Below, piece after piece: positions 4,921-17,836 of a DNA stretch of 24,000 bases (its first letter is position 1; each line of letters starts with the position of its first letter). The position numbers and the translations under genes were made by a program. The DNA comes from Candidatus Micrarchaeales archaeon (GTDB taxonomy: Archaea > Micrarchaeota > Micrarchaeia > Micrarchaeales > CABMGC01): the NCBI GenBank assembly GCA_050749785.1, contig JBOGSA010000002.1, forward strand, positions 37,447-61,446, written 5' to 3'. The notes beneath the pieces are model-generated. The model saw only the letters and a program-made list of their open reading frames with translations, did no database searches and had not been told where the DNA came from.

Positions 4921-5481
4921 TCACTTGTTTATCTTCATCCTTGCAAGCTTTTTAGAAGCGAATATCCGTATCATATACTCCTGTATCTCTTTGATAAAGG
5001 CCGCCTCGTTGGTCTTGCGCATCTTCTCCTCATCGGGCTCAAAGAGGCCTACATTTCTGACAACAAGATTTTTGAGGTAGCTTTGGGTTATGGAATAAAG
5101 TTTCTTTTTGCAGTTGCTGCACACAAAGAGTGGGATAACGGGCACTGTTGTTATTGCAGACGGGTGCACGAGGTCCATCTCCCTGCTTATCTTTCCATTT
5201 GTGCAAGTCTCGCATGTTGCATTCACCTTTACATGCTCGTAGTTATCCACATTTTTTATCATGATCTTTTCCGTCACATTCTTCAGATGCACCGCAATCT
5301 CGGCGAGCGGCTCCTTTGACTTGTTGTATGTCTGATCAAGGACTTCCCCGTCCTTGCTGAATTCAGAAACTAGGACTCCATGCGCAGTTTTTTCTATAAC
5401 AGCAAACGCTTTCTGCCCCTCAAACTCATAGAAATCGGTCCTGTACCTTCCATCAGGGCTTTTGTGAACCTCGAGCACCAT
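4921..5481 (-). CDS. Hypothetical protein with a putative Zn-ribbon (C-x2-C ... C-x2-C)
   Basis: The pairs CETC and CSNC lie about 35 aa apart. Its start codon abuts the histone stop (5481/5482). No family recognised. Confidence 0.6.
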   Translation of the reverse strand: MVLEVHKSPDGRYRTDFYEFEGQKAFAVIEKTAHGVLVSEFSKDGEVLDQTYNKSKEPLAEIAVHLKNVTEKIMIKNVDNYEHVKVNATCETCTNGKISREMDLVHPSAITTVPVIPLFVCSNCKKKLYSITQSYLKNLVVRNVGLFEPDEEKMRKTNEAAFIKEIQEYMIRIFASKKLARMKINK

Positions 5482-5718
5482 TCACTCACAGTCTATTACG
5501 TATTTTGCAACGTCCTCCTTTGTTATCTTTGCCCTCCCTTGCTTCTTTGCGTTCTTTACCGCGTACTTTGATATCTTCACTGCCTTCTTTTCGAGTATCC
5601 GGCCCAGCGCGCTCGCGCCGTCGTCGGTTATGTTGACGTTCGCATACCGCTTGATAAGCTTCTTTATCGCTTCATTAGGTATGTTCGCCACATTATCAGC
5701 ACTCAAGATCGTCATCAT
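5482..5718 (-). CDS. Archaeal histone-fold protein
   Basis: 78 aa. The pattern IPNEAIKKLIKRYANVNITDDGASALGRILEKKAVKISKYAVKNAKKQGRAKITKEDV parallels the HMf-type histone fold (helix-loop-helix-loop-helix, R-x-T-[IV]-x-x-x-D). Confidence 0.8.
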   Translation of the reverse strand: MMTILSADNVANIPNEAIKKLIKRYANVNITDDGASALGRILEKKAVKISKYAVKNAKKQGRAKITKEDVAKYVIDCE

Positions 5719-5874
5719 GTGTTTCAGACTTGATCTTACTCATCACACACCTATTCTGGTAGAGAGCTAATTTATAACCTTCCTCTTGCTTCCGCTATTC
5801 TCCTTGAAAACGTAAAAAACAAAGTTGTAGATTTGATTTATAAAGTCCGAAAAGAAGAATATTAGTGTGAAACG

Positions 5875-6339
5875 ATGGCATATGTTTTCCAACCAAAAGA
5901 TGCGGGCGCAAGAAGCGACCAGACGCTAGCACTTGCCATCAAGGTCGGAGAGGTGATAAGGGGGACGAACCTCGGCGCAGAAGTGGTTAACGATCTGATA
6001 AACGCATGCAATCTAGAGCAGAGCCTAAAGAACGAGGTGAGGAAGGTATTCCGCTCAATCGGCGAGGAGATACCACAAGAGGAGCCGGTAACATACAAAG
6101 GCCACACGGTTAAACTCAAGCAGAAGAACAAGATAAGGAGGATTGCACTAAAGTACCCTGACCAGATAATGGGCACAATAGCGATTGCAAGAATGCTCAA
6201 CCTTGAGAGGGCGGTGGCAATACTTAAGAGGGAACTTGCCAAGCAGCAATCTAAATCCGATCCGCTGATGGACAAGCTCGCACTCTCGAGCTTCAACTAC
6301 GAAGTGAGAAAGATAGAGAACAGGAAGCTTGGCTTCTAA
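5875..6339 (+). CDS. Hypothetical 154-aa protein
   Basis: Long ORF preceded by a TTTATAAA box about 35 nt upstream. No family recognised. The antisense ORFs 5862-6296 and 6148-6540 are treated as shadows. Confidence 0.6.
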   Translation: MAYVFQPKDAGARSDQTLALAIKVGEVIRGTNLGAEVVNDLINACNLEQSLKNEVRKVFRSIGEEIPQEEPVTYKGHTVKLKQKNKIRRIALKYPDQIMGTIAIARMLNLERAVAILKRELAKQQSKSDPLMDKLALSSFNYEVRKIENRKLGF

Positions 6340-6391
6340 AGCTTCTAAACTTATATATCTATTCCCGACTGAAGTAGTATTGGTGTTTTCT

Positions 6392-6712
6392 ATGGCAGTA
6401 GATGATATTAACAAGGATAAATTCGACGCAGACGTATTGAATTCCAGCACTCCGGTAGTGGTGGACTTCTGGGCAGAGTGGTGCGGACCGTGCAGGGTAT
6501 TCTCCCCTATAGTCGAGGAGGTCTCAGGCGAGTTTGACAAGAAGGTAAAGTTTTACAAGCTAAACGTGGATGATAATCCTGAAATCGCAGAAAGGTACAA
6601 TGTGATGAGCATTCCAACGGCGGTTCTTTTCGAGAAAGGGGAAGTCAAGGCGGTGTCGATAGGCGCACTGCCAAAGGAGAGCCTCAAGAAATGGATATCG
6701 ACAAACCTATGA
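6392..6712 (+). CDS. trxA: Thioredoxin
   Basis: Canonical WCGPC active site (VVVDFWAEWCGPCRVFSP) and thioredoxin length when started at ATG 6392. The track start at 6329 adds a hydrophobic extension. Confidence 0.92.
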   Translation: MAVDDINKDKFDADVLNSSTPVVVDFWAEWCGPCRVFSPIVEEVSGEFDKKVKFYKLNVDDNPEIAERYNVMSIPTAVLFEKGEVKAVSIGALPKESLKKWISTNL

Positions 6713-6724
6713 TTGGTGCTTTTT

Positions 6725-7993
6725 ATGCCACTCTCACAGCCAAGGGGCGTTAGGGACTTCGGACCCGCAGATGCCATTGCAAGGAAGAGAATAATCGCGG
6801 TTGTAGAAGAGACATTCAAGAGATTCGGATTTTTGTTCATAGAAACGCCGGCAATCGAGAACCTAGAAGTTCTCAACACAAAAGCGTACGGCGACGAGGC
6901 CTCAAAGCAGATCTACAAAATACAAGACGATGATTCTGCGCTCAGGTTCGATCTTACAATCCCAATGGCTAGATATGTCGCGATGAACGGCAACATGCCG
7001 CTGCCATTCAAGAGATACCAGATTGGCCAGACATGGAGACGCGACGAGCCGCAGAAGATGCGCTATAGGGAATTCACGCAAGCAGACATCGATATAGTTG
7101 GAGGCGCCGGCCCGGAAAACGATGCAGAGATAATCGCCGCATCATCTTTTGCGCTTGAGGAACTGGGGCTCACCGACTACAAAATCCTGCTAAACAGCAG
7201 AATAATACTCAATGCAGTGATGGAGTCATTTGGAATCGGCGCAGAGAATCAAGCAGCCGCGATAAGAACGCTTGACAAGCTCGCAAAGGTGAGCATCCAG
7301 GAGACAGAGGACCAAATCGCAAAGCTTACGGATGCAAGGAATGCAGAAAAGCTCGTGGAATTCATAACCCAAGAGGGATTAAACGAAGAGAAGCTCGAGA
7401 GGATTGCGGCAAACATCACAGAAACAAAAGTGGAGGTTGACAAGCTGCAGAAGCTAATCGAACTGATCCGCACCTACAAACTGCGCGGCGAAGTTGTCTT
7501 CTCACCATCGCTTGCCCGCGGGCTTGACTACTACACAAGCTTCGTGTGGGAGTTCGTGATCACCTACAATGGAAAGACGCTGCCCACAATCGCCGCTGGC
7601 GGAAGGTACGACAATTTGATGGAATTATACTCAAAGAAGAGCATGCCGGCGGTCGGATGCTCAATCGGGATCGATAGGGTCTTTGATGTGATCGAGACGC
7701 AGCCGATGCAAGCACCAACTTCGAAACTATTTGTTGCTGTCATAGGTGATGAAAATTACAATTACGCACTCACAATCGCAAGCAGTGCACGCGCAAAAGG
7801 AATCTACACCGACATAAACACCACAAAGCGCAACATCTCAAAACAATTAGAGTATGCAAACGCACTTAAATTCAGATATGCAATAATAGTAGGTAATCAG
7901 GAGAGGTCTGCAAACAAGCTAAAGCTCAGGGATCTTGCAAGCGGCGATGAGGAATTGCTCTCGCTTGATGAGGCAATGCAGAAGATCGGGTAA
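6725..7993 (+). CDS. hisS: Histidyl-tRNA synthetase
   Basis: Class II HisRS motifs: PRGVRDFGP, YQIGQTWRRDEPQKMRYREFTQADIDIVG, GGRYDNL, GCSIGIDR. ATG at 6725; the track start at 6713 is TTG. Confidence 0.92.
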   Translation: MPLSQPRGVRDFGPADAIARKRIIAVVEETFKRFGFLFIETPAIENLEVLNTKAYGDEASKQIYKIQDDDSALRFDLTIPMARYVAMNGNMPLPFKRYQIGQTWRRDEPQKMRYREFTQADIDIVGGAGPENDAEIIAASSFALEELGLTDYKILLNSRIILNAVMESFGIGAENQAAAIRTLDKLAKVSIQETEDQIAKLTDARNAEKLVEFITQEGLNEEKLERIAANITETKVEVDKLQKLIELIRTYKLRGEVVFSPSLARGLDYYTSFVWEFVITYNGKTLPTIAAGGRYDNLMELYSKKSMPAVGCSIGIDRVFDVIETQPMQAPTSKLFVAVIGDENYNYALTIASSARAKGIYTDINTTKRNISKQLEYANALKFRYAIIVGNQERSANKLKLRDLASGDEELLSLDEAMQKIG

Positions 7994-7997
7994 GAAA

Positions 7998-8492
7998 ATG
8001 GCAAAGGATGAAGTAAGCAAGGTAACGCACGACGCGCTCCAAGAAGGCGGAGTTCTAGCCAAGCTTTATTTTGACATGCACAGCGAGAAAGAGGAGGATC
8101 TGCAGCCGCTGATGACAGATCTGATAAGCAATAGGCTGCTCAAGACGCCGGGCGTAATATACTGCGTGGGTGAGATTGCCGAGCCAATAAAAATAGAGGA
8201 GATTTATTCCACCAACGCCGTGGCAACAATACTCTTCAAGGACATCGGTGCTCTGATAAACGTCACATTCAACTACGCACCAGCCGGCATCGAGATAATA
8301 AAACCAGAAAAGGAGGTTGCGATAAAGGTTAGCGAGCTCCAATCCATACTTCTCGACCTATCGAAAGTTGCGATGGAGTATTCACAGTTCATACTCAGCC
8401 GGGTCCTTTCAAAGGAGGACTACGAAAAAGTGCAGGGCGACCTCAAGAACAGGGAACTCGTGGGAAAGAGGCTGCTCGAGAAGAAGGAGTAG
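7998..8492 (+). CDS. Hypothetical 164-aa protein (gene X; left flank of the cassette array)
   Basis: ATG at 7998, 4 nt after the hisS stop. Its last 86 codons are duplicated at 11067-11327 with a purifying-selection pattern, which argues for a real, conserved gene. Family not recognised. Confidence 0.7.
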   Translation: MAKDEVSKVTHDALQEGGVLAKLYFDMHSEKEEDLQPLMTDLISNRLLKTPGVIYCVGEIAEPIKIEEIYSTNAVATILFKDIGALINVTFNYAPAGIEIIKPEKEVAIKVSELQSILLDLSKVAMEYSQFILSRVLSKEDYEKVQGDLKNRELVGKRLLEKKE

Positions 8493-8524
8493 TAGTTTGG
8501 TTATAAACGAATCTTGTAATCAGC

Positions 8525-8532
8525 TTTATAAA
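8525..8532 (+). promoter_or_regulatory. TATA-like box (TTTATAAA) inside a 36-nt block conserved at the left edge of both cassettes
   Basis: Block 8497-8532 aligns with 11419-11454 at about 27/36 identity and ends in an identical TTTATAAA. It lies upstream of small gene E in both copies. Confidence 0.5.
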
Positions 8533-8588
8533 TAAGGGCAAACAACATTAACTTGAAGCAAGAACCATATTTGCAACTGCGTGAAAAA

Positions 8589-8774
8589 ATGGGCGGAACA
8601 ATAAATAAGAACGGCAAACTGTATAAAACAGAAAGAAGGATAACCTTCGTTATGTCACCTAAGAATGGTTGCCCACGTTTCAGCATAACGGGAAACGTAA
8701 CAAAATTCAGAGACGACTTTGGCGGCAGAGTTAAATCAAAAGGAAAGCTTATAAGACACTTTACCTCTGTTTAA
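8589..8774 (+). CDS. Cassette 1 small protein E1 (61 aa), function unknown
   Basis: ATG 8589 within track ORF 8553-8774. An ungapped alignment with hand-translated E2 shares CPR..(I/V).G..(V)KF.DD(F/Y). Position and the 3-prime/3-prime overlap with R are conserved in both cassettes. Confidence 0.45.
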   Translation: MGGTINKNGKLYKTERRITFVMSPKNGCPRFSITGNVTKFRDDFGGRVKSKGKLIRHFTSV

Positions 8775-9789
8775 CTACTGATTTAATAAATTCCCTTTGT
8801 TTCTCATACTCCTCCAAATGAGAAGGCCACTTGCCAACTATAATATCGGTAAGTATTGCCCTATCTATTTTTGGCTTTTCTGTTTTCCACATAGTTTGTA
8901 CTAGTTCGGCGCCTCTTTTTGACATCTCCTCCCCATTCTTGAAAGTGCACATAGAAAACACATCATAAGTGCCATTAATGTTAACATCGAGCACATAGTC
9001 ACTTGTTGCCCCATTAAAACTTTCTGTAGTAAATTCTTTTGCCAAATTAAGGGCCAGTTCTTGGTGGTTTTTTACAGGTGTTAATGTTGCCCCATATGCC
9101 AAAATAATCTTCTTATCTGTCTCTTGAGTTAGGGCAGCAAATTTCCTAATAATTTTCTTTTGTTCAAGTTTTTCAAGTATGTAAATGGCCCTCATCTGCG
9201 TTGTCTTCGCCTTATTCACCAGCTCCTTTAACTTTATTCTTGAGTTTTCATTTACCGCTTTTAGCACCGCTTTTTCAGTTTTGTTGAGTATTGGACTTAG
9301 TTCAATCAGCTCATTTTTCAACGGTAAAAACCCAACAATGTATTCATTGATCGTAGAAGTCTTGAAGATCGGCACATAATCGCTCAAATCCATCCTGAGC
9401 TTAAACTGCCATGTTTGGAAGTCTTTTGAGGTTAAACCTACCACATAAAGAAGAAGGTCAAAGTCTCCCGTTCCCAAATAAGCGTCCTGTACGAAGACAT
9501 CCCTCCTGAATTTATTGTATAGAAATTCTCTCGTAGGCGTATTCTCAAATTTTACCGTTATGAGTCTGCCCTCAGAAAAACCTAAGGCAACCTCGTCAAG
9601 TTCAACTGTATAATATATATGGTATCGTGCCTCCAGTTCCTTTAAAACTTTGGAGATAGTAAAATGGGAAACCCCTATTTCACGAGATAATTCCCTAATA
9701 GTAATTCGGGAATTTTTGGCTATTCTAACTAAAATCTGATAAGGCACTTCTTCCCGTATGAATTTCATAGCTTTTCGCGTGTGCACCAT
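8761..9789 (-). CDS. Cassette 1 regulator R1: two tandem wHTH + RAM-like modules (Lrp/AsnC-like)
   Basis: HTH-like segments: ILVRIAKNSRITIRELSREIGVSHFTISKVLKELE and VLKAVNENSRIKLKELVNKAKTTQMRAIYILEKLEQKKIIRKF. Each is followed by a RAM-like segment, e.g. LITVKFEN...VQDAYLGTGDFDLLLYVVGLTSKDF. ATG at 9789; TTG alternative at 9801. Confidence 0.7.
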   Translation of the reverse strand: MVHTRKAMKFIREEVPYQILVRIAKNSRITIRELSREIGVSHFTISKVLKELEARYHIYYTVELDEVALGFSEGRLITVKFENTPTREFLYNKFRRDVFVQDAYLGTGDFDLLLYVVGLTSKDFQTWQFKLRMDLSDYVPIFKTSTINEYIVGFLPLKNELIELSPILNKTEKAVLKAVNENSRIKLKELVNKAKTTQMRAIYILEKLEQKKIIRKFAALTQETDKKIILAYGATLTPVKNHQELALNLAKEFTTESFNGATSDYVLDVNINGTYDVFSMCTFKNGEEMSKRGAELVQTMWKTEKPKIDRAILTDIIVGKWPSHLEEYEKQREFIKSVVKQR

Positions 9790-9912
9790 TTTATCTTCCA
9801 AAATAATTATTTATTTATTATATTAATGATAAATACTATAATTTATTTGATTTATTTGCCAATAAATATATATACCCAAAACTTCATAATTATTTCCAGA
9901 GGGAATTGGATT
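9790..9912. promoter_or_regulatory. AT-rich divergent control region of cassette 1 (between R1 and the A1-D1 operon)
   Basis: About 85% A+T by eye, with multiple TATA-like boxes on both strands. Contains the tandem direct repeat ATTTATTTG x2 at 9841-9858. Confidence 0.55.
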
Positions 9913-10182
9913 ATGGGGATATACACTGCCAATGCTTTCCCAAAGTTTGGCAAGACTGATTTTCTTCACTCCCTAAAGAATACCCATCCCAAGGTAAGTT
10001 CCCATATCCTTCCCTCCATCTACAACTCCTTCATCAAAAGATTCGTAAGACCGAAATTTGTCAGAAAATCGTACCTATGTTGGCAGTGTGAGGAGAAATA
10101 CTCCGATCCCCTGAAATATACCATGCATATGCGGGACTGCTGTTGCATAAAGCAATGTGCCACTATAGAGGTAATTAAATGA
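9913..10182 (+). CDS. Cassette 1 protein A1: small classical (beta-beta-alpha type) C2HC zinc-finger protein
   Basis: The segment YLCWQCEEKYSDPLKYTMHMRDC fits Y-x-C-x2-C-x3-Y-x5-Y-x2-H-x3-C. About 65% aa identity to A2. ATG at 9913 within track ORF 9781-10182. Confidence 0.8.
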   Translation: MGIYTANAFPKFGKTDFLHSLKNTHPKVSSHILPSIYNSFIKRFVRPKFVRKSYLCWQCEEKYSDPLKYTMHMRDCCCIKQCATIEVIK

Positions 10183-10346
10183 AGCCGCATGAACGTGCCA
10201 TGGAGATGCTCTTGCAAATAAGCGAGATGAACCTCATGCTGCCTGAGCTCTATAGCCACCTTCCAAGGAACGACTGGATAAGGATTAAGCAGCTTCTCGA
10301 GGAGACACAGCAGATACTCGAAAAGCATAGGAGGGTGCCGATATGA
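10179..10346 (+). CDS. Cassette 1 protein B1: 55-aa helical protein
   Basis: Hand-translated: MKPHERAMEMLLQISEMNLMLPELYSHLPRNDWIRIKQLLEETQQILEKHRRVPI. ATGA overlap with the A1 stop. 44/55 identical to B2. Below the track cutoff. Confidence 0.75.
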   Translation: MKPHERAMEMLLQISEMNLMLPELYSHLPRNDWIRIKQLLEETQQILEKHRRVPI

Positions 10347-10504
10347 ACTACTACGCCTACATCAGGAGAAGGTGCGCAGACCTTATCAGCCTGAGGTTCA
10401 AGTTGCACAAGCTATTCAATTTCCTGCATGGCCCGGATTTTGAAAGGCTGCAGGAATTGCTTGATGAAGCAGAACAGATACTTAAGAAATACGAGAATAT
10501 GTGA
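10343..10504 (+). CDS. Cassette 1 protein C1: 53-aa helical protein, paralogous to B
   Basis: Hand-translated: MNYYAYIRRRCADLISLRFKLHKLFNFLHGPDFERLQELLDEAEQILKKYENM. ATGA overlap with the B1 stop. The first 51 aa are identical to C2 despite about 13 synonymous nucleotide differences. Confidence 0.85.
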   Translation: MNYYAYIRRRCADLISLRFKLHKLFNFLHGPDFERLQELLDEAEQILKKYENM

Positions 10505-10517
10505 ATTGTGTGTTTTC

Positions 10518-10802
10518 ATGTCTTCAAAAAGGAAGTGTAGGATAGCATGCGAAAGCCAAAAGCTGCGCAGTTTCATAATGCTAAAGCCCTCACTGCCTGC
10601 CAACTCGCACGCAGTAGCAAAGGAGATCGCGATGTGCAGGGGCGTGAGGGAGGTGGCACTTACGACAGGCGAATTTGGATTTATTGTAGGAGTAGAGTCA
10701 GAGCCATTGGTTGAAGAGATCAAAAGGAAGATTCACACAATTGCACATTCCAAAAAGATGAGTGTGCTTGTCAAGCATTTTTCGTACAAAAATACACTAT
10801 AA
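10518..10802 (+). CDS. Cassette 1 protein D1: stand-alone RAM (Lrp/AsnC ligand-binding-like) domain protein
   Basis: FIMLKPSLPANSHAVAKEIAMCRGVREVALTTGEFGFIVGVES resembles the RAM beta-alpha-beta-beta core (V.EV..VTGEYDLIV.VE). About 65-70% identical to D2. ATG 10518; TTG 10506 is possible. Confidence 0.75.
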   Translation: MSSKRKCRIACESQKLRSFIMLKPSLPANSHAVAKEIAMCRGVREVALTTGEFGFIVGVESEPLVEEIKRKIHTIAHSKKMSVLVKHFSYKNTL

Positions 10803-10804
10803 AG

Positions 10805-11062
10805 TCATTTCGCCAGCCCGCGCAGGAAAAACCTCTTTATCACGACGCTCGGCCTGTCCATGTCGCCGTATTTTCCAAGGAACGATTCGAGGCCCATCAG
10901 TTTTATCACCCTGGCAATCCTCTCAAGGCTCTTTTTGCTCTGCGTTGCGTAAAGGTTGTAGAAGAAAGAATGCAGCCTGACTTCTTTCTCAAACTCCTTC
11001 CTCCATTTGCGCTCATATGTGCTGAGCTGCGTTCCTTTGTTTATGTGGCTTGCGATTGCATC
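10805..11062 (-). pseudogene. 3-prime fragment (last 85 codons + stop) of a GGR-family gene
   Basis: Encodes DAIASHINKG...FFLRGLAK, 85/85 aa identical to the end of 13807-14913, with about 9 nucleotide differences that are all synonymous. It lacks the remaining ~283 codons. The upstream extension of track ORF 10805-11107 is antisense of the X fragment. Confidence 0.88.
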
Positions 11063-11066
11063 AGTG

Positions 11067-11327
11067 CTCTTCAAGGACATCGGCGCGCTGATAAACGTGG
11101 CGTTCAACTACGCCCCGGCGGGAATCGAGATAATGAAGCCGGACAAGGAAGTGTCGATAAAGACGAGCGAGCTCCAGTCCATAATACTCGACCTATCGAA
11201 AGTTGCGATGGAGTATTCACAGTTCATACTCAGCAGAGTGCTATCCAAGGAGGATTTCGAAAAGGCCAAGACCGACCTGCAAAACAGAGAGATGATAGGC
11301 AAGAAGCTCCTTGAAAAGAAGGACTAA
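11067..11327 (+). pseudogene. 3-prime fragment (last 86 codons + stop) of a gene-X homologue
   Basis: LFKDIGALINVAF...LLEKKD is 71/86 identical to the X C-terminus, and the replacements are mostly conservative. It lacks the first 78 codons. The upstream part of track ORF 11007-11327 is antisense of the GGR fragment. Confidence 0.88.
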
Positions 11328-11446
11328 AAAATCAATAATCGCATTTTATTCTCCACCCATCTGGAATATCTATTTTTATTTCCATTTTCCTCCATTTTTA
11401 GACCCCTTGAAATATCAATTGATAATAAACGAAGTTACATATCAGA

Positions 11447-11454
11447 TTTATAAA
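11447..11454 (+). promoter_or_regulatory. TATA-like box (TTTATAAA) of the conserved left-edge block, cassette 2
   Basis: Counterpart of 8525-8532. Lies about 36 nt upstream of the E2 ATG. Confidence 0.5.
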
Positions 11455-11489
11455 GGGGGATTGCAATGATTATTTGTATAGTGAGTTAA

Positions 11490-11660
11490 ATGAGAATTAT
11501 AAAGAGCAACAATAAGACAGTAATAGTAGCATCGGGGGGGGACAATGGCTCACAGTGCCCACGAGGAATCGTATCTGGCAGTCATGTTAAGTTTGCTGAT
11601 GATTACCACAATAAACTTATAGCTAAGAAATCTCTCGTCTTTAAGCTATTTCTTGTATGA
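11490..11660 (+). CDS. Cassette 2 small protein E2 (56 aa), function unknown
   Basis: Hand-translated: MRIIKSNNKTVIVASGGDNGSQCPRGIVSGSHVKFADDYHNKLIAKKSLVFKLFLV. Weak but positional homology to E1. Overlaps the R2 3-prime end by 15 nt. Contains a G8 run. Confidence 0.4.
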   Translation: MRIIKSNNKTVIVASGGDNGSQCPRGIVSGSHVKFADDYHNKLIAKKSLVFKLFLV

Positions 11661-12767
11661 TTTTGGTATTAATTTTGCCGATTCTAGGAATTTATATTGT
11701 CTAGAGTATACGGCATCAAAATCTCTGACACCTGTATTACCAAGCAATATCTGTGTCATGAAGAAGGGTTTTATTGATGATCCATGTAACTCTGTCCTTA
11801 ATTTATTAAGGAACTTTTCAGCAGAATTACCATCAACAAAATTCATAAAAATTATTATGCCTTGTGGGGTAGAAATATCGCACATGAAAGTATACTCTAT
11901 GTGTTTATCATAATCCCTAACCATATCTAGCCACCAGACTGATCTGCTATTTAGAAATTGTTTGTCGTTAAGTATCGTGACTTGGACTATGAGCGTAACA
12001 ACATTGTTTGGCTTATTTTCATAGTAAGTAATTCTGCGAAGCATTCCTGTATCTATCAACCTTTCATACGCATAGATAATATGCGGTAATCCATGTTTTG
12101 ATTCTTTTGCAATGGCACTAAACTCCTTTCTCCCATCTTCATTCAATGCTAGCAGAATGTGTTTATACGTATCTAGTATTTGGAATTTCTCTACGAGATT
12201 ATTTTGCATAGGGAAGAAACCGAAGGTCGTGCGTATGTTCAATAGCTCAGAACGTATTTCATAATGTTTATCAAGGCTGCTGATGTCCTCTCTAAAAGTA
12301 TTTAAAAATCTGTTTATCTCGTCGTAGCTTCTTGCAATTCCATATATAACTACATCATATTCGCCATGCAATCTTGCTGCAAATTGCGGTATATAATGTT
12401 TTTCAAGAGCTTTTGAGAACTCAATGTCTGTAGGGATACCATCTATGAATTTGATGAATATTAGGTACTCTTCGAAGCCTAACTCCGGCAACTTTTCAAT
12501 AACGTTTTCTAAGATTCCCTTCTTATTGTAGGTTCTCGCATATTTTACAAATTCCCATCGCCACAATTCCTCTATCCCTATTTCGGGAGTAAAACGTATG
12601 TCCTGTTCCTTTACCGTCTCTCTAAATAATCTATTCAAGGTGGTTTGGGGGACATTAAGTTTTGAAGCAAGATCCCTTATACTTCTTCTTCCATCAACAC
12701 TCAAAAGTTTCAGCATCCTTCTCTTAATTGCTGCCTTTTCCTCATCACTAAATATTCTGTCAGGCAT
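11646..12767 (-). CDS. Cassette 2 regulator R2: two tandem wHTH + RAM-like modules (Lrp/AsnC-like)
   Basis: HTH-like segments: LKLLSVDGRRSIRDLASKLNVPQTTLNRLFRE and ILLALNEDGRKEFSAIAKESKHGLPHIIYAYERLIDTGMLRRI. RAM-like segment: LIFIKFIDG...AARLHGEYDVVIYGIARSYDEINRF. Same architecture as R1 but only about 20% identity by eye. ATG at 12767; TTG alternative at 12785. Confidence 0.7.
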   Translation of the reverse strand: MPDRIFSDEEKAAIKRRMLKLLSVDGRRSIRDLASKLNVPQTTLNRLFRETVKEQDIRFTPEIGIEELWRWEFVKYARTYNKKGILENVIEKLPELGFEEYLIFIKFIDGIPTDIEFSKALEKHYIPQFAARLHGEYDVVIYGIARSYDEINRFLNTFREDISSLDKHYEIRSELLNIRTTFGFFPMQNNLVEKFQILDTYKHILLALNEDGRKEFSAIAKESKHGLPHIIYAYERLIDTGMLRRITYYENKPNNVVTLIVQVTILNDKQFLNSRSVWWLDMVRDYDKHIEYTFMCDISTPQGIIIFMNFVDGNSAEKFLNKLRTELHGSSIKPFFMTQILLGNTGVRDFDAVYSRQYKFLESAKLIPKSYKK

Positions 12768-12915
12768 ATTTCTCTTTTGAATCAAACATTTTTAAGTCTT
12801 TGGTTTATATTAAGAATTATTTACCAATTTATTCAATATTTAGCCTATTAATAGCACATATTATTCTAACTACTTATAAAAGTATCTAACTGCATATTAT
12901 ATTTGGGATTTGGGA
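12768..12915. promoter_or_regulatory. AT-rich divergent control region of cassette 2
   Basis: AT-rich with TATA-like boxes, e.g. CTTATAAAAG about 38 nt upstream of the A2 ATG. Contains the tandem repeat ATTTGGG x2 at 12901-12914. The sequence is not alignable with the cassette 1 control region. Confidence 0.55.
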
Positions 12916-13179
12916 ATGGGAACTTACATCGTCGAAACTTACAAGTTAGGCACTACTGATTTTCTTCACTCCCTGAAGAACAACCCCCAGAAGGTAAGTT
13001 CCCAAACCTCTCCCTCATTCTATAAGTCCTTTATCAAAAGATTCGCAAGAACAAAAGTCATAAAGAAAGCCTACTTGTGCTGGGAATGCGAGGCGAAGTA
13101 TTCTGATCCTTTGAAATATGCTATACACTTGGAAGACTGCTGCACTAAACAGTGTGCCACAATCGAGGTAATTAAATGA
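12916..13179 (+). CDS. Cassette 2 protein A2: classical C2HC zinc-finger protein
   Basis: YLCWECEAKYSDPLKYAIHLEDC has the same spacing as A1. ATG 12916; the track start at 12910 is TTG. Confidence 0.8.
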   Translation: MGTYIVETYKLGTTDFLHSLKNNPQKVSSQTSPSFYKSFIKRFARTKVIKKAYLCWECEAKYSDPLKYAIHLEDCCTKQCATIEVIK

Positions 13180-13343
13180 AGCCGCATGAACGTGCCATGG
13201 AGATGCTCTTGCAAATAAGCGAGATGAACCTCATGCTGCCTGAAATATACAATCACCTTACCATGAATGATTGGTACAGACTAAAGCAGCTCCTCGAGGA
13301 GGCAGAACAGATACTGGAAAAACACAAGAAGGTCTCGATATGA
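13176..13343 (+). CDS. Cassette 2 protein B2: 55-aa helical protein
   Basis: Hand-translated: MKPHERAMEMLLQISEMNLMLPEIYNHLTMNDWYRLKQLLEEAEQILEKHKKVSI. ATGA overlaps at both ends, as in cassette 1. Confidence 0.75.
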   Translation: MKPHERAMEMLLQISEMNLMLPEIYNHLTMNDWYRLKQLLEEAEQILEKHKKVSI

Positions 13344-13504
13344 ACTATTATGCCTACATAAGGAGAAGGTGTGCAGATCTAATCAGCCTAAGGTTTAAGT
13401 TGCACAAGTTGTTTAACTTCCTGCATGGCCCGGATTTTGAAAGGTTGCAGGAATTGCTTGATGAAGCAGAACAGATACTTAAGAAATACGAGAGAAGCAT
13501 GTAA
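13340..13504 (+). CDS. Cassette 2 protein C2: 54-aa helical protein
   Basis: MNYYAYIRRRCADLISLRFKLHKLFNFLHGPDFERLQELLDEAEQILKKYERSM, the C-terminal part of track ORF 13271-13504. Confidence 0.85.
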   Translation: MNYYAYIRRRCADLISLRFKLHKLFNFLHGPDFERLQELLDEAEQILKKYERSM

Positions 13505-13515
13505 TGGTGTGTTTC

Positions 13516-13818
13516 ATGTCTTTGAAGAACAAGTGTAAGATAGCGTGCGAAAACCTGCGAAGTCAGCATGGCTTCATAATTCTGAAGCCCTCTTCGTCTA
13601 TTAATTCACACATTGTTGCAAAGGAGATCGCGATGTGCGAGGGTGTAAAGGAAGTGGCGTTGACAACTGGCGAATTTGGATTTGTAGTGAGGGTGGAGTC
13701 AAGAATAGGGATTGAAGGCATCAAAAGGAAAATTTCTGCAATTACTCATTCTAAAAAGGCAAGTATCCTCGTAAAGCATTTTTCATACCGAAATACCATC
13801 CATAATTCATTTAGCTAA
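13516..13818 (+). CDS. Cassette 2 protein D2: stand-alone RAM-domain protein
   Basis: FIILKPSSSINSHIVAKEIAMCEGVKEVALTTGEFGFVVRVES. ATG at 13516 is homologous to the D1 start; an upstream ATG at 13504 is possible. The 3-prime end overlaps the GGR stop region by 12 nt. Confidence 0.75.
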   Translation: MSLKNKCKIACENLRSQHGFIILKPSSSINSHIVAKEIAMCEGVKEVALTTGEFGFVVRVESRIGIEGIKRKISAITHSKKASILVKHFSYRNTIHNSFS

Positions 13819-14913
13819 GCCGCGCAGGAAAAACCTCTTTATCACGACGCTCGGCCTGTCCATGTCGCCGTATTTTCCAAGGAATGATTCGAGGCCCATC
13901 AGTTTTATCACCCTGGCAATCCTCTCAAGGCTCTTTTTGCTCTGCGTTGCGTAAAGGTTGTAGAAGAAAGAATGCAGCCTGACCTCCTTTTCAAATTCCT
14001 TCCTCCATTTGCGCTCATATGTGCTGAGCTGCGTTCCTTTGTTTATGTGGCTTGCGATTGCATCTGCGGCATATCGAGCTCCGTTTCCGCCGAATATTAT
14101 TCCGCCTCCGGTGGTTGGCTTCACCTGACCTGCAGCATCGCCGACAAGAAGCACCTCTTCTTTGTCCTTCACGAAATGTTCGCGCATCCCAACCGGAATG
14201 AAACTTGCGCCTTCTGTTATGAATTTTCCGCTCTTTACTACCTCTGCAATCGCAGGGATTTTCTTGAATTTCTCAAATGATGACTTGCTGTTGCCAAACT
14301 TCGAGTCAATCCCTATTCCTATTTCCGCGATATCTTTTGAGTTTGGGCAGATCCATCCGAAGAATCCAGGGGTGAGGTCGTTGTCGAAAAATAGCTCCAC
14401 CATGCTGTTCTCCTCTAACTTATAATCATATTCCGCCCTGAAAGTGAGAATCTGCCTTTGTATTGCAGGAAACTTGAAATGCCTTGCCACAGACGACACA
14501 GCTCCATCGGCGCCTACCACTATCTTCTCCTGCGACAACTTATCGAATAGGGTAGCATCAACCTTTGTACCAATATGCATCTTCACTCCCTTCTTCTCGC
14601 TCTCTTCTAAAAGCAGCTTGTTGAGTTCAAATCGCTCAAGTACATAGGCCACAGCCTTCTGTGATTTTATCTCTAGTATCTCCTTGCCTATGTGTAATTT
14701 TGCTCCGTGTAAGGTGTTGGTCATCACCTTCCTGTAATCTATGCCCAAGGTTTCAAGTCCGCTGATCGAAAGGATTCCGGATGCTCGCACAGGAAATCCA
14801 GGCGTCTTGTTCTGGTCGTACACATCAGTTTCTATTCCAAAATCACGCAGCCTGTTTGCAGCAATTAACCCTGCAGTTCCTGCCCCAATAATCGCAACAC
14901 TATTCTTCATCAA
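13807..14913 (-). CDS. Geranylgeranyl reductase-family FAD-dependent oxidoreductase (right flank of the cassette array)
   Basis: N-terminal dinucleotide fold VAIIGAGTAGLIAANRL...DVYDQ, followed by LLVGDAAGQVKPTTGGGI. Length and motif order are typical of archaeal GGR-family proteins. Confidence 0.85.
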   Translation of the reverse strand: MMKNSVAIIGAGTAGLIAANRLRDFGIETDVYDQNKTPGFPVRASGILSISGLETLGIDYRKVMTNTLHGAKLHIGKEILEIKSQKAVAYVLERFELNKLLLEESEKKGVKMHIGTKVDATLFDKLSQEKIVVGADGAVSSVARHFKFPAIQRQILTFRAEYDYKLEENSMVELFFDNDLTPGFFGWICPNSKDIAEIGIGIDSKFGNSKSSFEKFKKIPAIAEVVKSGKFITEGASFIPVGMREHFVKDKEEVLLVGDAAGQVKPTTGGGIIFGGNGARYAADAIASHINKGTQLSTYERKWRKEFEKEVRLHSFFYNLYATQSKKSLERIARVIKLMGLESFLGKYGDMDRPSVVIKRFFLRGLAK

Positions 14914-14971: not shown

Positions 14972-17836
14972 ATGACCTTCTTAGTTCCGGCATTTATATC
15001 ATTACTATCTATAATAGTCCCTGGATTTTTCCTGGCACTAGCCCTGCTCAAAAAAACAAAGCTCAACATGTTTGAGATTGGTGCGATTGGATTCATATTC
15101 GGACTGATTTTCCCGCCAACAATGATCTGGCTCGAAGCCTACCTCATACCAATTTCACATGCATTCGCATTTTCCACAAACCTCTACAACATAAACGTTG
15201 TGCTTCTCACGATAATCGGCATAGTCCTCTGCTTCATGCAAGGAATTTTCTCCACCGACCACATAAAGCCATTCATCGGCATGGCAAAGTCTGCAAAGAG
15301 CCAGGCGACGGCAGAGAGTGTTGTTCTTAGCCCCAGCAAGAAGGGACACTCTTACATCTGGTACATATTGATGGGGCTTATGCTTGTCACATTCGCATCA
15401 AGGCTGCTAAGCCTTGGGATTGCACCAAATTTCTTCGAGTTCGACCCATATTTCGACATGCTCAGCACCCAATCCATACTCGTTCACGGCTATCAGGTTC
15501 TTTACGACCATTCTGCTTGGCCTACGCTAACCGCAGGCAGCCCGCACAGAATAGAACCAATAGTTCCTTATCTTGAGGCTTACTGGTACACAATCACAAA
15601 CCAGCTCCAGACGCACTACACGGCATTTAGCACCTCGCTCATGAGCGATGTTAGCAGCTTCTATCCACCAATAGTTGCTGCGCTGCTCGTCTTTGTCGTT
15701 TTCATGTTCCTATATCATGAGTATGGCGAGTTCCCGGCGATAATCGGCGGCACGCTTGCGACCGCAATGCCGGCACTCATCACAACATTCATCGCAGGAG
15801 AACAGCTCGTCGAACCATGGGGAATCTTCACGCTTTTCTTCTTCTATGCGGCGTATCTGCTCGCGGTCAACAACTTACATGAAAAGAAGTTCGCAATACT
15901 CGCAGGCATCGCCTTCGTATCCACCTTCCTAGGCGCTCACTACTACACGGTGGACGCGGGAGTTCTTGCGATATACATACTGCTGCAAGGAATAGTATTT
16001 GTCCTAAAGAAAGAGCACACAAAGGATTTCTACATCCTCAATATAATCGTAATCGCGATAATCGCAGTCTTCTACGTGCTCTTCGCGCCATATGGAAGCG
16101 TTCTTTCCAACAAGATACCGGCGTTGCTTGGCGTACCGATTATAATCGGCTTCCCGCTCTTTGCCATGATATTCGTCCTGATATTCGAATACATTCCAAA
16201 GCTGCTTGCACAGAAAAAGATACTCTTCAAGCAACTAAACTTCCTAGAATACGCAGGCTTTTTGCTGCTCCTTGCAATCGTTGCGATAGTGCTGATAATG
16301 TTCACATCGCTTGGCGAACCGGTGCAGAAATATATAACACTTAGCACCCACTTCACAACTCCCTCAATACCGTTGTTTGCAACAGTCCAGGAGTATTCGC
16401 CGACAGGATTTAACTTCAACTTCGGGTCTGCAGGCTTTGGAATAATTGGCGCAACCATTTTGGGAGTCAACTTGATAGTATGGCTAGTGCTGATTTTGTT
16501 CACAGCTCTTATGCTGCTTGCAATCTACCACAGGAATTCTAAGTTCAGCATCCTCTCTCTTGCCGCTGTATGGCCGCTTGCGATTGCAGGAATGGTAGAG
16601 GTGAAATATCTGCCGCACTTCGGAGTTGGTTACATACTTGCAATTGGCGCAATAATCGGGGAACTTTTGATACTGGCAAACAACAACTTCAAATTCAAGG
16701 ACATGGCAAATGTGATACCAACACTCAACCTCAAGCTCAGATCGGTGCAAGCGATAGCCGTTATCGCCATAATCGTTGTCATACTCGAATCTGGAGTGTT
16801 CCTAAACATTATAAGCGCTGTGGCTAATCCAAGCTGTGCCTCCCTTTCTAGTTCCAACAATCAGATAGGCTACACTCTTTATTGTGAGGTCGTATCGCAG
16901 CAGTGGCTGAGCGCACTCTCATGGATGAAGGCAAATGTAGGGCCGTACGCCCCAAGGGTGCTTGCATGGTGGGACTATGGAGACTGGATAAACTGGTTTG
17001 GCAACAGCAATGCGGTGCTCAGAGGAGACAACGCTGTAGCAACTTCAGACTACGCCACCGCAGCGCAGTATGTGCTAGTGAATTCTGACGGCGTTAATTC
17101 CTCGACCCTTTCATCTTACATGAACTCAATACAGGCAAAGTATGTGCTCTTTGATGATCAGCTGATGCAGAAGTGGGGCGCGCTGGACTATCTTGCATGT
17201 GTAAATGCAGGACAAACGAGCCTAGCATACGCAGTACAGCAGGGGCAGGCTAACGGCCAGCCCTACCAACTCGGCACATCTCAGTGTGAACTAGCCCACG
17301 ATCCTGTGTATGCGCTCGTTCCTGCAACGACCAACAACATAAACAATTACTGCCAGTTCAGCAATTCATCTGTCCAGGCGCTCAAGGTGATAATGCTAGC
17401 TGGCAACAACTTCCTCAATGTGACATACTGCGTTCCTGCAAGCCTATACAACAGCGTCAGCCCAGTGCATCTCTACACCACCAACGGAACGATGACGAAC
17501 GCAATGATCATACCTTCGCAGACATTCTTCTATGGCACAATTCCACTAAGCGGCCAGACATTTGCGGACTTCCTTGTTGTGTACCTGCCTAACGGGCCTA
17601 ACGACACGATAACAGATGCGCCTACGCAGTTCTACAATTCGAGCTACTACAAAGGATTCTTCTTTGGCAAGGTGAAGGGATTCAGTCTTGTCTACCCAGA
17701 GAACTTCACAGGAGTGAACTACATCAACAGTACGAACACTGTAATGATACTGCAAGTCGACAACTACACCGGCGGCATACCAACGGCGACTCCAAAGGCG
17801 AGCTACGTTACAAACAACTACACAATGCCTGGTTGA
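14972..17836 (+). CDS. aglB: Archaeal oligosaccharyltransferase AglB (STT3 family), 954 aa
   Basis: A multi-TM N-terminal half followed by the WWDYGDWINW (WWDYG) catalytic motif at 16967-16981. ATG 14972 was chosen because the track ORF start at 14741 runs antisense through the GGR gene. A TTTAAATA box lies about 40 nt upstream. Confidence 0.9.
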   Translation: MTFLVPAFISLLSIIVPGFFLALALLKKTKLNMFEIGAIGFIFGLIFPPTMIWLEAYLIPISHAFAFSTNLYNINVVLLTIIGIVLCFMQGIFSTDHIKPFIGMAKSAKSQATAESVVLSPSKKGHSYIWYILMGLMLVTFASRLLSLGIAPNFFEFDPYFDMLSTQSILVHGYQVLYDHSAWPTLTAGSPHRIEPIVPYLEAYWYTITNQLQTHYTAFSTSLMSDVSSFYPPIVAALLVFVVFMFLYHEYGEFPAIIGGTLATAMPALITTFIAGEQLVEPWGIFTLFFFYAAYLLAVNNLHEKKFAILAGIAFVSTFLGAHYYTVDAGVLAIYILLQGIVFVLKKEHTKDFYILNIIVIAIIAVFYVLFAPYGSVLSNKIPALLGVPIIIGFPLFAMIFVLIFEYIPKLLAQKKILFKQLNFLEYAGFLLLLAIVAIVLIMFTSLGEPVQKYITLSTHFTTPSIPLFATVQEYSPTGFNFNFGSAGFGIIGATILGVNLIVWLVLILFTALMLLAIYHRNSKFSILSLAAVWPLAIAGMVEVKYLPHFGVGYILAIGAIIGELLILANNNFKFKDMANVIPTLNLKLRSVQAIAVIAIIVVILESGVFLNIISAVANPSCASLSSSNNQIGYTLYCEVVSQQWLSALSWMKANVGPYAPRVLAWWDYGDWINWFGNSNAVLRGDNAVATSDYATAAQYVLVNSDGVNSSTLSSYMNSIQAKYVLFDDQLMQKWGALDYLACVNAGQTSLAYAVQQGQANGQPYQLGTSQCELAHDPVYALVPATTNNINNYCQFSNSSVQALKVIMLAGNNFLNVTYCVPASLYNSVSPVHLYTTNGTMTNAMIIPSQTFFYGTIPLSGQTFADFLVVYLPNGPNDTITDAPTQFYNSSYYKGFFFGKVKGFSLVYPENFTGVNYINSTNTVMILQVDNYTGGIPTATPKASYVTNNYTMPG

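Follow-up and report, generated by a model that had tools for sequence, protein, structure and literature searches.

Organization of the X–GGR locus

The organism is a tiny symbiotic archaeon (Micrarchaeota) of the DPANN group. In the window analyzed here, a 24,000-nt stretch of a Micrarchaeota genome, two different versions of a six-gene cassette lie in tandem between two host genes, X and GGR. The two units (8232-11062 and 11067-14064) are collinear, with E on the plus strand, R on the minus strand and then A, B, C and D on the plus strand, and both carry a 3′ piece of X and a 3′ piece of GGR. Self-comparison of the window with BLASTN, a check proposed along with the original prediction of such a tandem, returned exactly two off-diagonal matches. 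One corresponds to the X 3′ end (8223-8491 vs 11058-11326, 80% identical), and the other to A–D together with the GGR 3′ end (9943-11062 vs 12943-14064, 82% identical); the order of the ORFs agrees with this arrangement. At the amino acid level, units 1 and 2 are 22–23% identical for R, 67% for A, 80% for B and 68% for D, and C1 and C2 are the same at 51/51 residues over their shared length (dS 0.69, dN 0). These recomputed values match the earlier estimates (R ~20%, A and D 65–70%, B 80%, C 51/51). All six cassette genes have homologues on other Micrarchaeota contigs and are therefore real genes, not chance ORFs.

Full-length X (7998..8492, plus strand) encodes a 164-aa protein of the MJ0538 family (Pfam PF27325), whose orthologues, 50–76% identical, adjoin HisRS in 8 Micrarchaeota loci. 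Full-length GGR (13807..14913, minus strand) belongs to the geranylgeranyl reductase family (TIGR02032, 9.6e-47). The two genes are convergent. When the X–GGR site was compared in relatives, as had been suggested, X and GGR were found to abut with nothing between them in five Micrarchaeota (L002, L004, L005, L006 and L009), indicating that the cassettes are insertions.

The left homology block, the last 261 nt of X (8232-8492, plus strand), recurs as an X 3′ fragment of 86 codons (11067..11327, plus strand) within an ORF that is open from 11007/11043. The right homology block, the 3′ 258 nt of GGR (13807-14064, minus strand), recurs as a GGR 3′ fragment comprising the last 85 codons and the stop (10805..11062, minus strand). 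Both fragments are as originally described. The X fragment and the X 3′ end share 80% nucleotide and 83% amino acid identity, with a dS of 1.09 and a dN/dS of 0.09; they are mutual closest relatives, and their distances to outgroups are equal. The GGR fragment differs from the 3′ end of the full-length gene by nine synonymous and no nonsynonymous changes, a pattern with a probability of 6.5e-5 if one copy were drifting neutrally and 7e-7 if both were. Between the two flanks, dS differs five-fold (X 1.09 vs GGR 0.19). At the head-to-tail junction (11052..11066), similarity to GGR extends as far as 11062, and unambiguous similarity to X begins at 11067. Only microhomology is present at this joint, possibly extending to 11 nt (GCGATTGCATC) as judged from the sequence. 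No integrase, transposase, Rep or terminal repeats were found in the window, as the original prediction had stated.

R and E of the two cassette types

R1 (8761..9801, minus strand) and R2 (11646..12785, minus strand) encode fused tandem Lrp/AsnC-type proteins, of 342–346 aa in the R1 type and 373–379 aa in the R2 type. R1 matches HTH_24 (1.3e-9) in two stretches as well as Lrp/AsnC models in NCBIfam, and R2 matches an HTH_AsnC-type domain (5e-9), also in two stretches. Among PDB structures, NirDL (4ch7, E 1e-11) best matches the AF2 model of R2 (pLDDT 82.5, pTM 0.81) over its full length, and either half matches Lrp/AsnC regulators. Orthologues of R1 are found in L016, L019 and L021 at 46–55% identity, and those of R2 in L014, L020 and L023 at 54–59%. 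On these comparisons, the R1 and R2 types are ancient paralogues.

E1 (8589..8774, plus strand) encodes a short, conserved protein (61 aa in the gene call) with the motif CPR...KF.DDY; it is convergent with R1 and overlaps the R1 3′ end. E2 (11490..11660, plus strand) encodes 56 aa. In a 10-member alignment of the E family (A9), C-P and D are invariant. No match to E was found in PDB or Pfam, and its AF2 model is all-beta at low confidence (pLDDT 60). The GC3 of cassette-linked E–R genes is atypically low, 0.24–0.45 compared with 0.50–0.70 in the host.

Divergent AT-rich regions separate R from A in both units. The R1–A1 region (9802..9912), which may have a control role, contains a TATATA box and downstream sequence common to copy 3, one of the dispersed cassettes described below. 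The R2–A2 region (12786..12909), likewise a putative control region, holds the 2-nt indel that distinguishes the two assemblies compared below.

Small proteins encoded by A–D

A1 (9913..10182, plus strand) encodes an 89-aa protein whose C-terminal half carries one zinc finger, C-x2-C-x12-H-x3-C (C2H2/C2HC). The zinc-finger protein A2 (12910..13179, plus strand) is 92% identical in amino acids to A of copy 3, the first ~85 nt of the gene being 100% identical. Residues Y, C, W, C, Y and H are invariant in the A family alignment (A8), and the A profile matches C2H2 fingers in PDB in a single stretch (e.g., 7mc1 at 1.4e-5).

B1 (10179..10346, plus strand) and C1 (10343..10504, plus strand) encode paralogous helical proteins of 55 and 53 aa, C being the best-conserved gene of the cassette; their counterparts in unit 2 are B2 (13176..13343, plus strand) and C2 (13340..13504, plus strand). 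Nucleotides 10165-10246 at the B 5′ end are 100% identical to 13162-13243, and at the protein level B2 is closer to B of copy 3 (89%) than to B1. The B/C family has 24 representatives among 1.84 billion proteins. Searches detected no homologues of known function for B, C or E, and B/C and E are rare small-protein families without prior description.

D1 (10518..10802, plus strand) encodes a stand-alone RAM (Lrp/AsnC ligand-binding) domain protein of 94 aa, with a weak, below-cut-off match to Pfam AsnC_trans_reg (0.0027). The D profile (A10) weakly matches the 75-aa AsnC proteins 2cvi/2e1a of Pyrococcus horikoshii (5e-4). D2 (13504..13818, plus strand), for a stand-alone RAM domain protein of 100–104 aa, shares 12 nt with the region of the GGR stop. 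Among 5.8 billion proteins, A and D match only those of this organism. The initial view that nothing in the cassette is recognizable thus holds for B/C and E, but not for R (tandem Lrp/AsnC), D (RAM) or A (C2H2-type zinc finger).

Comparison with known systems

The R and D proteins are reminiscent of FL11 (full-length) and DM1 (RAM-only) of P. horikoshii, which form a documented hetero-octamer (PMC2995911), in that R has HTH and RAM units and D is a RAM-only protein of ~90 aa. However, R is a double unit, HTH-RAM-HTH-RAM, in one chain, and the whole set is multi-copy, with a type-specific R and homogenized partners. The locus further differs from described Lrp systems in adding the zinc-finger protein A, the helical proteins B/C and the convergent E. 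The only solved structures that match R over its full length are those of the NirDL/AhbA-AhbB siroheme decarboxylase, a fused or heterodimeric enzyme resembling Lrp/AsnC proteins (4ch7 and 4czc; E 1e-11; TM 0.5–0.59), and R also has a weak match to AhbA in NCBIfam (0.013). That this best match is an enzyme and not a regulator counts against a regulatory reading of R; however, identity is 11–12%, heme-pathway genes are absent nearby, and this small genome encodes five R paralogues. What R shares with NirDL is its architecture and not a demonstrated function.

The likeness to CDI/Rhs orphan arrays raised in the original prediction stands for topology only: ahead of the second module lies a fragment of the conserved gene found upstream, and alleles that have diverged accumulate next to each other. 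In content the two differ, because the X–GGR locus has no polymorphic toxin, immunity gene, conserved large gene or secretion context. Moreover, fragments of both flanking genes are present here, and these are unrelated housekeeping genes outside the system.

A dispersed cassette family

Contrary to the notion of a cassette limited to the X–GGR locus, the cassette forms a dispersed paralogous family. This genome carries four cassettes and one extra E–R pair, and the cassette is also found in other Micrarchaeota, at a different locus in every genome. Two E genes occur in copies 3 and 4. In copy 3, two NUDIX genes have displaced D, and copy 4 has D only as a pseudogene. In L016, two R genes lie 1.2 kb apart, and E–R pairs without A–D also occur. 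B, C and D cluster by genome whatever the R type, a pattern pointing to patchy gene conversion that keeps A–D homogeneous in each genome. Such conversion among the four copies would produce the observed mosaic, in which the B 5′ end is 100% identical, C differs only synonymously, A and D are 65–68% identical and R ~22%. The cassette is specific to the Micrarchaeota lineage and probably a regulatory gene cluster.

Origin of the tandem

The same tandem with the same junction is present in a second, independent assembly (GCA_975254265.1, contig CDHSRO010000004.1), which over 20,164 nt is 99.97% identical to the window and departs from it at 4 mismatched positions and one 2-nt indel; the two assemblies may come from the same or related samples. 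Another NCBI MAG (ACREBF locus tags, 61.5-kb contig) encodes the proteins in the same order. Neither type was recovered from any database as a lone cassette at X|GGR.

It is unlikely that the tandem is an assembly or population artefact, in which a one-cassette chromosome was threaded together with the locus of another strain or with a small [X3′-cassette-GGR3′] circle. The source is a short-read MAG, cassette repeats end contigs elsewhere in the same assemblies, and a Logan k=31 contig spans only 11205-12932, short of the junction. Because sequence is identical between the two copies over 82 nt at the B 5′ end and over 68–98 nt at the GGR 3′ end, a tandem is indistinguishable from a one-cassette chromosome plus a ~3-kb circle. 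However, none of these identical tracts is as long as a 150-nt read, two assemblies distinguishable by SNPs and an indel follow one and the same path, and the assembler stopped at the longer identical repeat of copies 3 and 4 rather than guessing. The GGR|X junction contains no shared k-mer and so must exist in real DNA; even the artefact scenario entails a circle that bears the junction, the alternative named in the original prediction. A tandem duplication of the resident cassette and its flanks in situ, followed by divergence or by partial replacement through intragenomic gene conversion, is in our judgment very unlikely, even though the junction resembles a classic microhomology tandem-duplication joint. 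The family does duplicate repeatedly (double E in copies 3 and 4, double R in L016), intragenomic conversion is demonstrably active, and A2 and B2 are nearer to their counterparts in copy 3, a dispersed cassette (92% and 89% amino acid identity), than to A1 and B1. Nonetheless, pure divergence is excluded by R1 and R2, which are 23% identical and represent anciently separate types, each with orthologues of 46–65% identity in other genomes. Intragenomic conversion also fails to account for the X fragment, as the genome has a single other X, yet dS is 1.09 and dN/dS 0.09, and for the 9:0 synonymous pattern of the GGR 3′ end.

Purifying selection was acting on the two flank fragments as they diverged, indicating that the units come from two lineages and not from in situ duplication and decay. 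Most likely, then, the second version entered by recombination from a related lineage, and not through a mobile-element enzyme. At the corresponding X|GGR site, the donor lineage would have had another allele of the cassette. The repeat unit runs from the 3′ end of X through the cassette to the 3′ end of GGR and is joined head to tail at microhomology; no dedicated recombinase would have taken part. To bring the two alleles together, either a circular (or tandem-derived) [X3′-cassette-GGR3′] molecule could have entered the chromosome by one homologous crossover, or DNA transfer could have been followed by an unequal or illegitimate exchange involving two chromosomes. Of the crossover and unequal-exchange model proposed originally, the prediction of two lineages is supported by the selection on the flanks, and the circular intermediate remains hypothetical. 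Given the flank dS values of 1.09 and 0.19, one transfer event is insufficient, and later conversion of the GGR 3′ end or a mosaic donor is also required.

The proposed import has a parallel in tandem duplications and merodiploids that arise by unequal crossing-over or Campbell-type integration when DNA is exchanged, such as the transformation-induced merodiploids of Streptococcus pneumoniae, whose formation is linked to imported DNA (PMC3784515) and which share with this locus a head-to-tail unit, a novel right-left joint and truncated boundary genes. In contrast to those merodiploids, the ~2.9-kb units here are heteroallelic, apparently from two lineages, and the joint lies at microhomology instead of IS-derived repeats. 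The host is also a DPANN archaeon, a group in which such exchange is scarcely documented.

Proposed role of the cassette

A selfish or conflict function (addiction, toxin-antitoxin-like or defence), under which replacement would be costly and incoming alleles would be kept side by side in the manner of CDI/Rhs orphan arrays, seems to us very unlikely. In its favor, the cassette is multi-copy and differs in locus between genomes, is inserted within an otherwise conserved gene pair, and has E–R genes of low GC3 (0.24–0.45 vs 0.50–0.70). In pneumococcus, merodiploids are the survivors when allele replacement is lethal (PMC3784515). Against such a function, PADLOC gave generic HTH matches only, PHROG yielded no informative match, and no relatives were found in 2.9 million viral contigs; these searches thus returned no defence, toxin-antitoxin or viral signal for the cassette. 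It contains no enzymatic or membrane-active candidate toxin, and E–R pairs exist without A–D. The decayed D of copy 4 and the displaced D of copy 3 further suggest that the set tolerates decay.

Based on its domains, the cassette probably functions in transcriptional regulation. R would bind the AT-rich divergent control region between R and A, and D may modulate R by RAM–RAM hetero-oligomerization, as modeled on DM1 with FL11 of Pyrococcus. A may act as a second DNA binder; B and C likely form a heterodimer and, together with E, would serve as accessory factors. Type specificity would reside in R and E, with A–D as common components kept alike within a genome. Overall, we favor, with some reserve, a history in which R1-type and R2-type regulatory clusters from two lineages were stacked at X|GGR by recombination.

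Results

Two diverged cassettes are arranged head to tail between host genes

Self-BLASTN of the window returned exactly two repeated blocks, 8223-8491 against 11058-11326 (80% identical) and 9943-11062 against 12943-14064 (82% identical), in agreement with the two collinear tandem units described in the original prediction. The full-length host gene X (7998-8492) is followed by E1 and R1 (8589-9801, with R1 on the minus strand), by A1, B1, C1 and D1 in this order, and by a 3' fragment of the geranylgeranyl reductase family gene GGR (10805-11062, minus strand). Directly past the junction lie a 3' fragment of X (11067-11327), E2 and R2 (11490-12785, with R2 on the minus strand), A2, B2, C2 and D2, and the full-length GGR (13807-14913, minus strand). 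Amino acid identity between the units is 22-23% for R, 67% for A, 80% for B, 51/51 for C and 68% for D, matching the values first estimated for these genes. A head-to-tail repeat with a single novel junction, boundary genes truncated inside and intact copies at the outer ends is the structure of a tandem duplication or a Campbell-type integration product. Campbell-type integration and unequal crossing-over are known processes that yield the same topology. Merodiploid formation during DNA uptake is one known route to it (PMC3784515). The search for terminal inverted or direct repeats and for a target-site duplication at the cassette ends gave chance-level short repeats only.

At the junction, homology to GGR is perfect through 11062 and homology to X is unambiguous from 11067. 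The 15 nt upstream of 11067, read in the X frame, encode A-I-A-S-V, and their counterpart in X encodes A-V-A-T-I; donor X sequence may therefore overlap GGR antisense sequence by ≤11 nt. Since the joint has no long shared k-mer, an assembler could only have built it from reads that contain it. Protein C is also encoded on contig CDHSRO010000004.1 of assembly GCA_975254265.1, which is 99.97% identical to window positions 343-20506 and is not the same sequence: over 20 kb it differs by mismatches at 840, 980, 12765 and 14026 and by a 2-nt indel at 12787-12788, within the R2-A2 control region. The public assemblies thus represent one population by two distinct consensus sequences. Moreover, an NCBI metagenome-assembled genome with ACREBF locus tags carries identical proteins in consecutive order on a 61,560-bp contig (R1, B1, C1, D1, one gene, X fragment, one gene, B2, C2, D2). 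A Logan contig ends at 11205, short of the junction.

The flank fragments appear to have diverged in separate genomes

An X-based scan of GTDB species representatives returned eight Micrarchaeota loci. In five of them (L002, L004, L005, L006 and L009; X 59-67% identical), nothing separates the convergent X and GGR, whose ends touch or share a few bases, and in L003 and L008 GGR is absent within 10 kb of X. The comparison among relatives that the original prediction proposed thus finds the site empty in five; relative to the ancestral state of the family, the cassettes are therefore insertions.

Between the GGR fragment and the 3' end of the full gene there are nine substitutions, all synonymous, so that the protein is identical over 85 codons; the probability of zero nonsynonymous changes is ~6.5e-5 if the fragment drifted neutrally and the functional copy took synonymous changes only. 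For the X fragment and the X 3' end, dS is 1.09 and dN 0.096, giving a dN/dS of 0.09, where ~0.5 is expected for a decaying fragment compared with a constrained gene. X and its fragment are mutual closest relatives (83% amino acid identity), and each is equidistant, at ~60%, from all outgroups. Together, the nine synonymous and zero nonsynonymous changes in GGR and the low dN/dS in X indicate that both fragments diverged inside working genes, and hence in separate genomes. Such divergence is what was predicted by the model originally put forward, in which a circle carrying the X 3' end, a cassette and the GGR 3' end recombines with the chromosome or two chromosomes undergo unequal exchange. 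The dS of the GGR flank is 0.19, five-fold apart from that of X, showing that the history was not one clean event and that later conversion of the GGR copies or a mosaic donor is also needed. Neither GC3, which is too similar between the X fragment and X 3' end and between the GGR fragment and GGR 3' end, nor the equal outgroup distances discriminate the resident from the incoming unit.

R is a tandem Lrp/AsnC protein and D a candidate RAM-only partner

R contains two winged helix-turn-helix (HTH) domains of the Lrp/AsnC (FFRP) family, each followed by an α/β-sandwich RAM domain. R1 matched HTH_24 (1.3e-9) and R2 an AsnC-type HTH (5.1e-9), in two stretches each and above the Pfam cut-off; PDB profile matches cover positions 8-67 and 191-256, and NCBIfam Lrp/AsnC models matched as well. 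The sequence-level RAM match is weak by itself (0.17). The AlphaFold2 model (20 sequences; pLDDT 82.5, pTM 0.81) has the order HTH-RAM-HTH-RAM, with a β-α-β-β-α-β topology in RAM, and in Foldseek each half matched Lrp/AsnC structures (TMt 0.6-0.74). The best full-length PDB match of R is NirDL, a fused Lrp/AsnC-like siroheme decarboxylase (E 1e-11, 12% identity); the likeness to NirDL/AhbAB consists of the fold and a sub-threshold AhbA match. Because this genome has five R paralogues and none of the loci showed heme-pathway genes, R is more likely a putative DNA-binding regulator than an enzyme.

The D profile (A10) matched the 75-aa Pyrococcus horikoshii AsnC proteins 2cvi/2e1a (5e-4, 70/85 positions). 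Against Pfam AsnC_trans_reg, D scored 1e-3 to 2.7e-3, short of the 25-bit gathering score. Its length and missing HTH fit a stand-alone RAM-domain protein (about 75-100 aa), and D is probably such a RAM-only protein (demi-FFRP, DM1-like). DM1, a stand-alone RAM protein, forms hetero-octamers with the full-length FL11 (PMC2995911).

A carries a single C2H2-type zinc finger, C-x2-C-x12-H-x3-C. The residues Y-x-C-W-x-C...Y...H are invariant in eight sequences, most of which have Cys as their fourth ligand (H-x3-C). Pfam gave no match for single A sequences, and the A profile matched many PDB C2H2 fingers, including the single-stretch 7mc1 at 1.4e-5. B and C are paralogous helical proteins of ~55 aa with the conserved C-terminus D-[FWY]-x-R-[LIM]-[QK]-x-L...E-x-x-x-I-L-x-K-[YH]; PDB profile search returned only designed helical bundles (E>0.08) and no known relatives. 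E is a conserved ~55-aa protein (CPR...KF.DDY) with no match in PDB profile search, and its AlphaFold2 model, all-β and built from a two-sequence alignment, was too poor for a fold search (pLDDT 60).

In a search of 5.8 billion proteins, the A and D profiles matched only proteins of this organism; R has 20 relatives. The B/C profile found 24 representatives among 1.84 billion proteins, nearly all of 42-100 aa. One member, P0040, is fused to a C-terminal CxxC...CxxC zinc ribbon, a hint that the helical mini-proteins B and C may act together with zinc-binding modules such as A.

The cassette family is dispersed within and between genomes

Copy 3 in the same genome (L011 7927-11715, contig 10) comprises E, E, R3, A, B, C, two NUDIX genes and a D-like gene, the NUDIX genes separating D from A-B-C. 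An E-R pair without A-D lies on the same contig (L011 15528-16850). Adjoining it at L011 16913-20162 (CDHSRO010000010.1) are a PIN gene with a small upstream gene, a weakly T4SS-pilin-like gene, two unknown genes and a DUF87/AAA_10/TrwB-like ATPase, which could form a conjugation- or Ced-like DNA-transfer cluster; if so, it would bear on DNA movement between lineages. Copy 4 is split across two contig ends, with E, E, R5 and the 5' half of A at locus L023, and the A 3' end, B, C and D at L013. In its D gene (L013 367-657), an in-frame TAG replaces the invariant Cys codon of the IAMC motif, and this D is likely a pseudogene. L013 also carries, at 5359-8508, a V-type ATPase A subunit with an intein containing a LAGLIDADG endonuclease domain.

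The six gene families recur in other Micrarchaeota, in permuted order and at a different locus in every genome. L014 (GCA_028867335.1) and L020 have R, E, then C, A, D and B with a 172-aa protein; L019, L021 and L022 have R, then B, C, A and D, with E seen in L019 only (L021 and L022 are short contigs). L016 (8001-11655), from a higher-GC relative, packs into 3.7 kb an R1-type R with E, a gene for a zinc finger and another R-like gene, which is longer (461 aa); this is another instance of neighbouring R paralogues. The gene directly 3' of the cassette encodes a Mom-family (DNA-modification-like) 388-aa protein in L019 (6618-7784), and in L014 (6378-6896) and L020 (2636-3154) the conserved 172-aa protein, which contains a CxxC motif but matched no family. 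Downstream of the cassettes in these other genomes there is no sign of a shared cargo. No duplication of flank fragments was found in L011, L013, L019 or L020. An 81-nt exact repeat around a run of N inside the L014 cassette (7038-7205) was rejected as a flank duplication; it is a scaffolding artefact, and gene calls at the D/B boundary there are unreliable.

R types and their partners follow two evolutionary regimes

R1 groups with R of L016, L019 and L021 (46-55% identity), and R2 with R5, the R of L014 and L020, and the cassette-less R4 (46-65%). Across types, identity drops to 20-29%; R3 is a third type, and the R types are ancient. B, C and D cluster by genome, whatever the R type: C is 83-96% identical among the four copies of this genome and 85-92% among L014, L019, L020 and L021, against 64-71% between the two groups. 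In sliding-window comparison, patches of 100% nucleotide identity join different copy pairs: copies 2 and 3 over the first ~85 nt of A, copies 3 and 4 from the A 3' end into B, and copies 1 and 2 at 10165-10246. This pattern marks ongoing gene conversion among dispersed copies, and it explains the mosaic identity of the tandem units. Cassette-linked E and R have a low GC3 of 0.22-0.45 (window 8589-9801 and 11490-12785; L014 8001-9272; L019 4408-5596), against 0.50-0.76 in neighbours and B/C. In E-R pairs without A-D (L011 R4 and the L004 R), GC3 is host-like.

Known defence and mobile systems are not matched

No relatives turned up when 2.9 million viral contigs were scanned with C, A, R2, the B/C profile and the D profile (five scans), and PHROG gave generic HTH matches only. 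In PADLOC, A-E matched nothing, and R matched Csa3/CasR/CARF-HTH models at the level of the HTH only (1.8e-5 and weaker). A viral or mobile origin was rejected on these grounds, and PADLOC did not place the cassette in any anti-phage defence or toxin-antitoxin system. Nothing identified an integrative element, virus or plasmid; no tRNA or other ncRNA family was found, nor any integrase, transposase, Rep or terminal inverted repeat, as first reported. The neighbours are all housekeeping genes: exosome RNase PH subunits, L37ae, RpoP, an aminoacyl-tRNA synthetase, histone, thioredoxin, HisRS, X (PF27325, MJ0538 family), GGR, a 954-aa membrane protein, a glycosyltransferase, TBP and a thermosome subunit. 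The 954-aa multi-pass protein (14972-17836) has no Pfam match, and relatives hold weakly similar (38-40%) proteins at the same position; it may be a very divergent oligosaccharyltransferase-like protein.

The original prediction recognised no described system in the cassette, which holds for defence, toxin-antitoxin and mobile elements and fails at the level of families, as R belongs to Lrp/AsnC and A to C2H2 fingers. Its comparison with CDI/Rhs orphan-module arrays extends to topology only, as Pfam, NCBIfam and PADLOC showed no toxin, immunity or Rhs/CdiA domains. CDI/Rhs arrays have a large polymorphic toxin gene with a variable C-terminal toxin and a cognate immunity gene, and their orphans are preceded by a toxin gene fragment, whereas the fragments in the window derive from housekeeping X and GGR.

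Discussion

We take the cassette to be a putative self-contained transcription-regulatory module and consider its two copies in the window to be probably a real heteroallelic tandem. Two Micrarchaeota lineages, each with a different cassette type between X and GGR, would have recombined, and intragenomic gene conversion among the cassette copies would have followed. An assembly or population artefact, or a chromosome accompanied by a circle, is an unlikely source of the layout: the junction is free of shared k-mers, two differing assemblies take the same path, and the assembler tends to break at longer repeats. Duplication in situ with conversion later, less likely still, is contradicted by the X fragment, and fragments that diverged as parts of working genes argue against duplication followed by decay.

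Two further readings concern the nature of the cassette. In the first, which we regard as a long shot, the cassette is an integrase-free, recombination-propagated polymorphic module that moves between Micrarchaeota lineages with pieces of flanking genes as homology arms, for example on small circles released from tandem arrays. Together with the common A-D set, each type-specific E-R pair would provide something indispensable, for instance addiction, self/non-self discrimination or control of host-symbiont specificity, and incoming alleles would for this reason be stacked, not exchanged. If so, the persistently AT-rich E-R genes would mark a horizontally circulating specificity module. That the cassette is a selfish or conflict module whose alleles are obliged to stack seems to us the least probable reading; multi-copy dispersal and odd composition speak for it, whereas the absence of any toxin-like component and the tolerated decay of D speak against it.

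The recombination topology is already known as an event, as are Lrp/AsnC regulators with RAM-only partners as a system. New are the architecture (a fused tandem Lrp combined with a probable RAM-only protein, one C2H2 finger and three orphan mini-proteins), the multi-copy state in a reduced genome, and the pairing of ancient regulator types with homogenised partners. So is the direct evidence, from sequence, that lineages of a DPANN archaeon have recombined with each other. Our literature search found nothing relevant on regulator expansions in Micrarchaeota.

The genomes of DPANN archaea, Micrarchaeota among them, are very small and encode few regulators, and to our knowledge little is known about DNA exchange in these archaea. 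At this locus, sequence-level evidence points to recombination, homologous or illegitimate, between Micrarchaeota lineages that have diverged; the site is defined and the junction can be recovered. The locus also reveals an undescribed gene cluster, which combines a tandem Lrp/AsnC protein with a probable RAM-only protein, a one-finger C2H2 protein and members of three orphan mini-protein families, and which is maintained at four to five copies in a reduced genome. In this cluster, ancient type-specific regulators stand beside partners kept alike through gene conversion, an unusual evolutionary split. Were the cassette a selfish module, it would represent a new, recombinase-free way to move genes; should its regulators govern genes related to symbiosis or stress, the family would provide a handle on regulation in an uncultivated phylum.
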